A model generated the notes under the pieces. That model ran no database searches. It saw nothing but the letters and a program-made list of their open reading frames with translations, and was not told the origin of the DNA. The position numbers were made by a program, and so were the translations under genes. DNA of 7,938 nt, from the NCBI RefSeq assembly GCF_003334335.1, contig NZ_QOWQ01000070.1. The stretch is one strand, 5' to 3'. Positions 5,308 through 5,397 of this stretch are shown one piece after another; the first letter of the stretch is position 1, and the number at the start of each line of letters is the position of its first letter. Source of the DNA: Escherichia coli (GTDB lineage Bacteria > Pseudomonadota > Gammaproteobacteria > Enterobacterales > Enterobacteriaceae).

Positions 5308-5397
5308 ATGAATAACCCCGTCTGTCTTGATGACTGGTTGATTGGCTTTAAAAGCTTATGCTGTACTTTGGCCGTAATAGCTCTGCTAATAATATAA
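5308..5397 (+). CDS. Candidate 29-aa hydrophobic small protein
   Basis: ATG at 5308 has GGAGAG 7 nt upstream. The hand-translated product is [29 protein letters not shown], with a hydrophobic C-terminal half. It is below the ORF-track size cutoff and there is no homology evidence. Confidence 0.3.

Follow-up and report, generated by a model that had tools for sequence, protein, structure and literature searches.

The type I toxins HokD, TisB, ShoB, Ibs and Ldr combine small size and a hydrophobic helix with an antisense RNA and a structured, translation-blocking mRNA. Some small membrane proteins of E. coli, AcrZ and MgtS among them, bind larger membrane proteins and modulate them. In lambdoid phages, the interval from Q to the holin gene holds accessory (moron) genes, for example stx in Stx phages. 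A further set of validated E. coli small proteins, among them YldA (29 aa) and YnaM/YnfT of the Rac and Qin prophages, resembles the protein considered here, YnfS: all are hydrophobic and shorter than 50 aa, all were found by SPA tagging and/or initiation-complex ribosome profiling, and none has an assigned function. YnfS has no sequence similarity to YldA or YnaM/YnfT and differs in that no protein-level constraint was seen on it here.

The locus lies in a stretch of E. coli DNA of 7,938 nt, analysed as a whole and referred to below as the window. It matches the Qin cryptic prophage of MG1655 with 99.96% identity over 7861 nt, starting at NC_000913.3 position 1636816. The original prediction had drawn attention to a 29-aa hydrophobic ORF with a good Shine-Dalgarno sequence, a palindrome upstream and a bidirectional terminator downstream. 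Inspection of the sequence and a terminator scan located all of these where they had been described, and the window's ORF list confirmed the reading frame (ATG at 5308, 29 codons, 5308-5397, + strand). The features of the region are as follows.

5041-5253, + strand: cspF, upstream gene on the same strand as ynfS (annotation)
5259-5272, no strand: perfect 14-bp palindrome ATTAAAGCTTTAAT in the cspF-ynfS spacer (read from the sequence)
5297-5302, + strand: Shine-Dalgarno-like GGAGAG, unchanged in six aligned ynfS-bearing loci (read from the sequence)
5308-5397, + strand: ynfS coding sequence, 29 aa plus TAA; ynfS b4750 / YP_009518791.1, MG1655 1642122-1642211
5398-5545, + strand: AT-rich 3' untranslated stretch from ynfS to the terminator, with a 7-nt indel (alignment)
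5546-5569, no strand: bidirectional intrinsic terminator, which would end cspF-ynfS (+) and serve as tR' analogue (-) (terminator scan)
5615-5644, - strand: putative pR'-like late promoter, TTTGCA-18-TAAAAT or TTGCAT-17-TAAAAT (promoter scan)
5675-6427, - strand: Q antiterminator gene (ydfT/quuQ), convergent with ynfS (annotation, ORF list)

Identity and translation of ynfS

The 29 codons are those of ynfS, a gene already known, and known to be translated, in a Qin-type lambdoid prophage of E. coli. The reading frame had been described as unannotated-looking, wrongly: NC_000913.3 carries it as ynfS (b4750, YP_009518791.1) between cspF and ydfT/quuQ, UniProt as YNFS_ECOLI ("Protein YnfS"), and RefSeq in other genomes as hypothetical protein WP_120795389.1. 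The 90-nt ORF is identical to the K-12 copy throughout, and all 29 residues (29/29) agree with Table 1 of PMC6001520 and with the YNFS_ECOLI cluster member. Its position agrees as well, since the ORF lies in a Qin-type prophage, in the cspF-ydfT/quuQ interval and on the + strand relative to cspF. The TAA stop (5395-5397) is directly followed by a second TAA (5398-5400), giving a double stop.

Translation of ynfS has been established experimentally. VanOrsdel et al. 2018 (PMC6001520) SPA-tagged 80 small ORFs in the chromosome and could detect the products of 36; ynfS appears in their Table 1 with matching flanking genes, matching coordinates and the exact sequence, and the chromosomally tagged protein was detected by immunoblot. 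The same paper noted that YnfS had earlier been an unidentified positive in tetracycline-arrest ribosome profiling. Weaver et al. 2019 (bioRxiv 10.1101/511675) reported strong ynfS start peaks with both retapamulin and Onc112; the tagged protein was detectable in stationary phase, at a level comparable to most of the small proteins new in that study. Two of the experiments that had been proposed for this ORF, profiling of arrested initiation complexes and epitope tagging, had thus already given positive results, and the view that it encodes a translated small hydrophobic prophage protein is borne out. The ynfS transcript is also among the genes listed for fluoride-responsive RNA levels by tiling array, therefore the RNA is made (PMC10100675). 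A y-ome survey still lists ynfS as uncharacterized (PMC11551758), and the literature that we searched for ynfS reports no function, location, fractionation, partner, phenotype or toxicity of YnfS.

The identity and the translation of ynfS are therefore settled. As a discovery the gene matters little: it had been named, annotated and experimentally confirmed before, and the decisive experiment proposed for it is already published, with a positive outcome. What the present analysis adds is modest, namely the restriction of ynfS to one lineage, the lack of measurable purifying selection on it, unlike its neighbours, and the finding that the type I toxin idea is unsupported.

The sequence features by themselves do not stand out. 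In first-order Markov simulations of the window, the mean number of ORFs that start with ATG, encode 25-60 aa and are preceded by GGAG at 4-9 nt was 1.04, and the window holds 1; in ynfS, GGAGAG and the ATG are five T's apart, which puts the end of the GGAG core 7 nt before the start codon. The palindrome just upstream is present and perfect, as had been described, but its frequency is only at chance level: 1 perfect 14-bp palindrome was observed against 0.57 expected per window, and at least one occurred in 42% of simulations. Its last position, 5272, is changed from T to C in 4 of 22 haplotypes. On these two counts, chance-level frequency and incomplete conservation, we rejected the palindrome as a binding site; it is probably a chance occurrence in the cspF-ynfS spacer. 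On sequence alone, then, neither the ORF nor the Shine-Dalgarno motif nor the palindrome exceeds chance, and ynfS is accepted as a real gene because of the published experiments.

The probable cspF-ynfS transcript and the type I toxin question

The gene order in the region is essQ (holin) < ynfU > cspB < cspF > ynfS > terminator < Q < ydfU. ynfS starts 54 nt after cspF on the same strand, and this adjacency and order are common to every locus that holds ynfS. Scans of the + strand for promoters and terminators returned no candidate of either kind from the end of cspF to the hairpin at 5546. The hairpin itself (CCCGCT-CATC-AGCGGG at 5550-5565, flanked by AAAA and TTTT and extended by the scan to 5546-5569) has a single variable position among its 24 nt in 22 haplotypes. 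Since no terminator lies between it and cspF, it is a plausible end of the transcript, which agrees with the original prediction. The simplest model is probably a cspF-ynfS transcript that ends at 5569, with ynfS as its second cistron. Such a transcript would be made in the lysogen, with ynfS as the distal cistron, and would terminate at the bidirectional terminator 5546-5569.

On the opposite strand, the Q stop codon at 5675 is closely followed by the pR'-like site (5644-5615) and, about 45 nt beyond that site, by the hairpin. Neither hexamer varies among 7 aligned loci. We infer that this site and the hairpin form a late promoter and a tR' analogue (pR'/tR'); a leader RNA of some 60 nt would result. 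An Rfam match to isrK over the pR'/tR' region was sub-threshold (16.6 bits against a gathering score of 50). Like moron genes, ynfS occupies, with cspF, cspB and ynfU, the interval from Q/pR'/tR' to the holin gene, and it does so both in intact phages and in prophages. Unlike the morons of this interval, cspF and ynfS run counter to the late operon, and Q-dependent read-through would not express them; because they point this way, late read-through of tR' would run antisense to the cspF-ynfS transcript.

The peptide has a GRAVY of 1.47 and a Kyte-Doolittle mean of 2.3-2.5 over residues 10/11-29. Residues 10-29 are long enough to span a bilayer (about 19-20 residues), with no residues after the helix. 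Lys15 interrupts the hydrophobic segment, and the uninterrupted run of only 13 residues (17-29) is borderline. One membrane helix at residues ~10-29 is plausible, and insertion into the inner membrane is probable: the peptide would partition there as a single helix with a short acidic N-terminus.

Small size and a hydrophobic C-terminus had suggested a resemblance to type I toxins, in which case the peptide would damage the membrane and an antisense sRNA would block its translation. YnfS does share the size and the hydrophobic helix with HokD, TisB, ShoB, Ibs and Ldr (29 aa, GRAVY 1.47), hokD is found in the same prophage, and promoter-like hexamers do occur on the minus strand. These hexamers (5418-5389), the only antisense candidate that the search of the minus strand returned, are weak (9/12), and positions 5414 and 5416 inside their -35 element and 5419 beside it are all polymorphic. 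Promoter-like sites in the region are not enriched (5 found against 2.9 +/- 2.0 expected). At gathering score, Rfam matched only two cspA-type thermoregulator leaders in the whole window and no RNA of an antitoxin or toxin-associated family. A relaxed search of 5150-5720 gave only matches well under threshold, centred on the terminator hairpin, including that to OrzO-P (15.6 bits against a cut-off of 60), which is the hairpin itself. Rfam, the promoter scan and the haplotypes thus disclosed no antisense sRNA antitoxin with its own conserved promoter near ynfS.

Nor does the mRNA resemble the translationally inert message of a toxin gene. The RNA of 5240-5420 is not unusually stable (z = -0.58 against shuffles), cells that are not under stress give strong initiation peaks, and LB cultures accumulate the tagged protein with no reported harm. 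YnfS also has no relatives in any known family searched (NCBIfam, PHROGs). The comparison with the known toxins therefore comes down to no antisense RNA gene found, no structured blocking mRNA, strong constitutive initiation and no family match. The idea is disfavoured because two defining features of the class were looked for and neither was found, and we consider it highly improbable that ynfS is a type I toxin gene. More generally, YnfS is probably not a dedicated toxin or regulator.

Distribution and selection on the reading frame

The ynfS segment is present, at a coverage of at least 80%, in 1406 of 5426 complete E. coli genomes (about 26%). Five phage records carry ynfS, representing four intact E. 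coli phages (HannyBb, PhiR42_1, PhiR63_1 and 2H10). Homologues of the 29-aa peptide were sought with degenerate DNA patterns and tblastn. The pattern DDWxxGFKxxCC matched 63 viral contigs; in these and the reference loci, 71 ynfS copies fall into 8 haplotypes, each at most 4 nt from the reference. Over 100,044 species genomes (one per species), the same pattern gave two matches only. The first is a Qin-like contig, 99.3% identical, that had been binned as Citrobacter; the second, in a Bacteroidales MAG, has in-frame stop codons and was rejected as a chance match. NCBIfam gave no match to YnfS and PHROGs no significant one (a single insignificant match had E = 0.12). No distant homologue was found in viral contigs, species genomes or family libraries. 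A Salmonella phage fragment and phage PHB10 carry more distant cspF-like genes (75.7% and 64.3% protein identity), neither of which is followed by a ynfS-like ORF. YnfS is thus confined to one lambdoid prophage lineage.

Every ynfS locus has the same neighbours in the same arrangement (essQ-ynfU-cspB-cspF-ynfS-terminator-Q). In about 17 of 85 loci, including LF82, a deletion from the 3' end of cspF to ~5501 has removed all of ynfS.

The alternative alleles of this region show some further features. The deletion allele (LF82 locus L007, 1299-1681; also L073-L091) runs straight from cspF codon ~68 into window position ~5501, and the LF82 cspF is annotated as a frameshifted pseudogene. HannyBb (L008, ~5430-7030) and viral contigs L029, L045 and L046 have ~1.7 kb of extra DNA between the terminator and Q. 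This insertion contains one 94-aa ORF with a hydrophobic C-terminus; we found no tRNA genes and nothing informative in it. In the HannyBb record many tiny ORFs are annotated in the insertion region, and ynfS is not called. L029, L045 and L046 also carry a mosaic module in which cspF is 92.5% identical to the window, ynfS 98.9% and cspB about 99%.

Selection was assessed over all fetched loci, each polymorphic site being classified against the reference.

ynfS: 1 synonymous, 10 nonsynonymous; pN/pS about 2.9
essQ: 14 synonymous, 5 nonsynonymous; pN/pS 0.12
ynfU: 6 synonymous, 5 nonsynonymous; pN/pS 0.23
cspB: 9 synonymous, 7 nonsynonymous; pN/pS 0.21
cspF: 18 synonymous, 10 nonsynonymous; pN/pS 0.19
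Q: 98 synonymous, 56 nonsynonymous; pN/pS 0.17

The single synonymous change in ynfS is C6C; the others are M1I (start loss), N2D, N3K, P4S, L11M, K15*, S16I, A22T, V23L and I29M. Of the sites in ynfS, 22% are synonymous, and the observed ratio does not differ from the neutral expectation (binomial p = 0.47), a result that is based on only 11 sites, counted as sites and not as events, in closely related, recombining prophages. ynfS differs from essQ, cspB, cspF and Q (Fisher p = 0.0005-0.018) and less clearly from ynfU (Fisher p = 0.06). Disruptive changes are not depleted: they are 2 of the 11 seen, whereas 6.5% of the single changes that could occur would be disruptive. The result is conservative, because the sampling by peptide pattern, which supplied part of the sample, can only hide nonsynonymous change. 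Unlike the neighbouring genes, YnfS is thus under no measurable protein-level purifying selection, and the synonymous-biased substitution by which conservation of the frame was to be recognized is absent. The refuting condition set for the ORF thus has a split outcome, as the initiation peak that it also named does exist. Over 5308-5394, none of the six frames shows a synonymous bias.

Polymorphic sites amount to 9% in ynfS and 9% in the cspF-ynfS spacer among 22 haplotypes. The stretch 5398-5545 is the most variable part between cspF and the terminator (22%). The lower figure for ynfS than for its 3' flank could be due to constraint, or to nothing more than a boundary of mosaic recombination. 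A hidden gene in the 3' flank was considered and rejected: two frames had 13 synonymous to 14 nonsynonymous changes, yet the 7-nt indel breaks both, and substitutions by codon position (12:7:5) were not significantly biased. A 41-codon ORF at 5358-5483 (+ strand), which overlaps the end of ynfS, is open in all haplotypes despite the 7-nt indel; we rejected it as a gene, as it has no Shine-Dalgarno motif and its codon-position bias is not significant.

An efficiently translated frame whose amino acids vary freely could be kept for its translation and not for its peptide. Ribosomes on ynfS might shield the 3' RNA of cspF from Rho or RNase, or hinder convergent late transcription through tR'. The short distance to cspF on the same strand with no terminator between, the unconstrained amino acids, and the start region and Shine-Dalgarno motif unchanged in six aligned ynfS loci are what such a role would lead one to expect. 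It fits poorly with the allele that has no start codon and the one that stops at codon 15, there is no direct evidence of Rho sites or of an effect on cspF, and cspF itself is a pseudogene in deletion-type loci. We regard a role of this kind as very improbable.

A second possibility is that YnfS is a functional accessory (moron) protein of the inner membrane, whose helix modulates a larger host or phage membrane protein and in which selection acts only on hydrophobicity and length. Further variants occur at residues 22 (A22T/G/V/S) and 11 (L11M/V), and most of the changes keep the hydrophobic character; because transmembrane helices tolerate conservative hydrophobic exchanges of this kind, a functional helix remains compatible with the substitution pattern. 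In its favour, 70 of 72 loci keep the ORF whole, polymorphism is lower in it than in its 3' flank, the gene is retained in intact, inducible phages, residues 10-29 are hydrophobic, and the strong start peaks and detectable tagged protein indicate that a product is made. Against this, the 1 synonymous to 10 nonsynonymous changes leave no synonymous bias, start-loss and nonsense alleles exist, the gene is deleted in about a fifth of related loci, homologues occur only within one prophage lineage, and neither a phenotype nor a partner has been reported for a protein that the y-ome survey leaves uncharacterized. We therefore treat a modulating role as possible and on the doubtful side. If YnfS has an activity, it probably needs only the hydrophobic helix.

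The reading that we favour is that ynfS is an evolutionarily young ORF of one prophage lineage whose amino-acid sequence would be free of detectable constraint. We judge the chances to be evenly balanced that YnfS is a translated, membrane-prone peptide from such a lineage-restricted ORF, with weak or no selected function, in the manner of a proto-gene. The lineage restriction, the lack of constraint extending to M1I and K15*, and the deletion in about 17 of 85 loci all favour this. The good Shine-Dalgarno motif, the strong initiation peaks and the double stop, which give ynfS the look of a real gene, weigh against it, as do the intact ORF in 70 of 72 loci and the lower variability than in the 3' flank. 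More specifically, and with somewhat less than even confidence, we suggest that the young ORF lies towards the 3' end of an accessory transcript of the phage, where it would be efficiently translated while still evolving neutrally.

The residual interest of ynfS lies in this combination of strong initiation with a lack of protein-level constraint, in a small ORF whose neighbours are all constrained, and the results are a warning not to take the translation of a small ORF as proof that it is functional. If the proto-gene reading is true, the best-studied E. coli strain would hold a bacterial proto-gene carried by inducible phages, and the step from translated noise to a selected small membrane protein would be open to direct study.

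Other observations in the window

The strain from which the window comes is not MG1655. It differs by one extra A in an A-run at 1346, by two SNPs in ydfU and by the end of an IS1414 element (IS256-like), which makes up the last 77 bases (7862-7938); MG1655 and most Qin-like prophage matches stop at 7861. The element is inserted on the rem side of ydfU, and the junction is common to only 2 complete E. coli genomes. At the site of the extra A, other strains have a longer annotated ynfN (231 nt against 156 nt in K-12), and a frameshift may have shortened the K-12 allele. The two cspA-type thermoregulator leaders (RF01766) are full-length, at 4509-4901 (- strand, 158.8 bits) and 1614-1999 (- strand, 112.8 bits), and cover cspB and cspI together with their upstream leaders.
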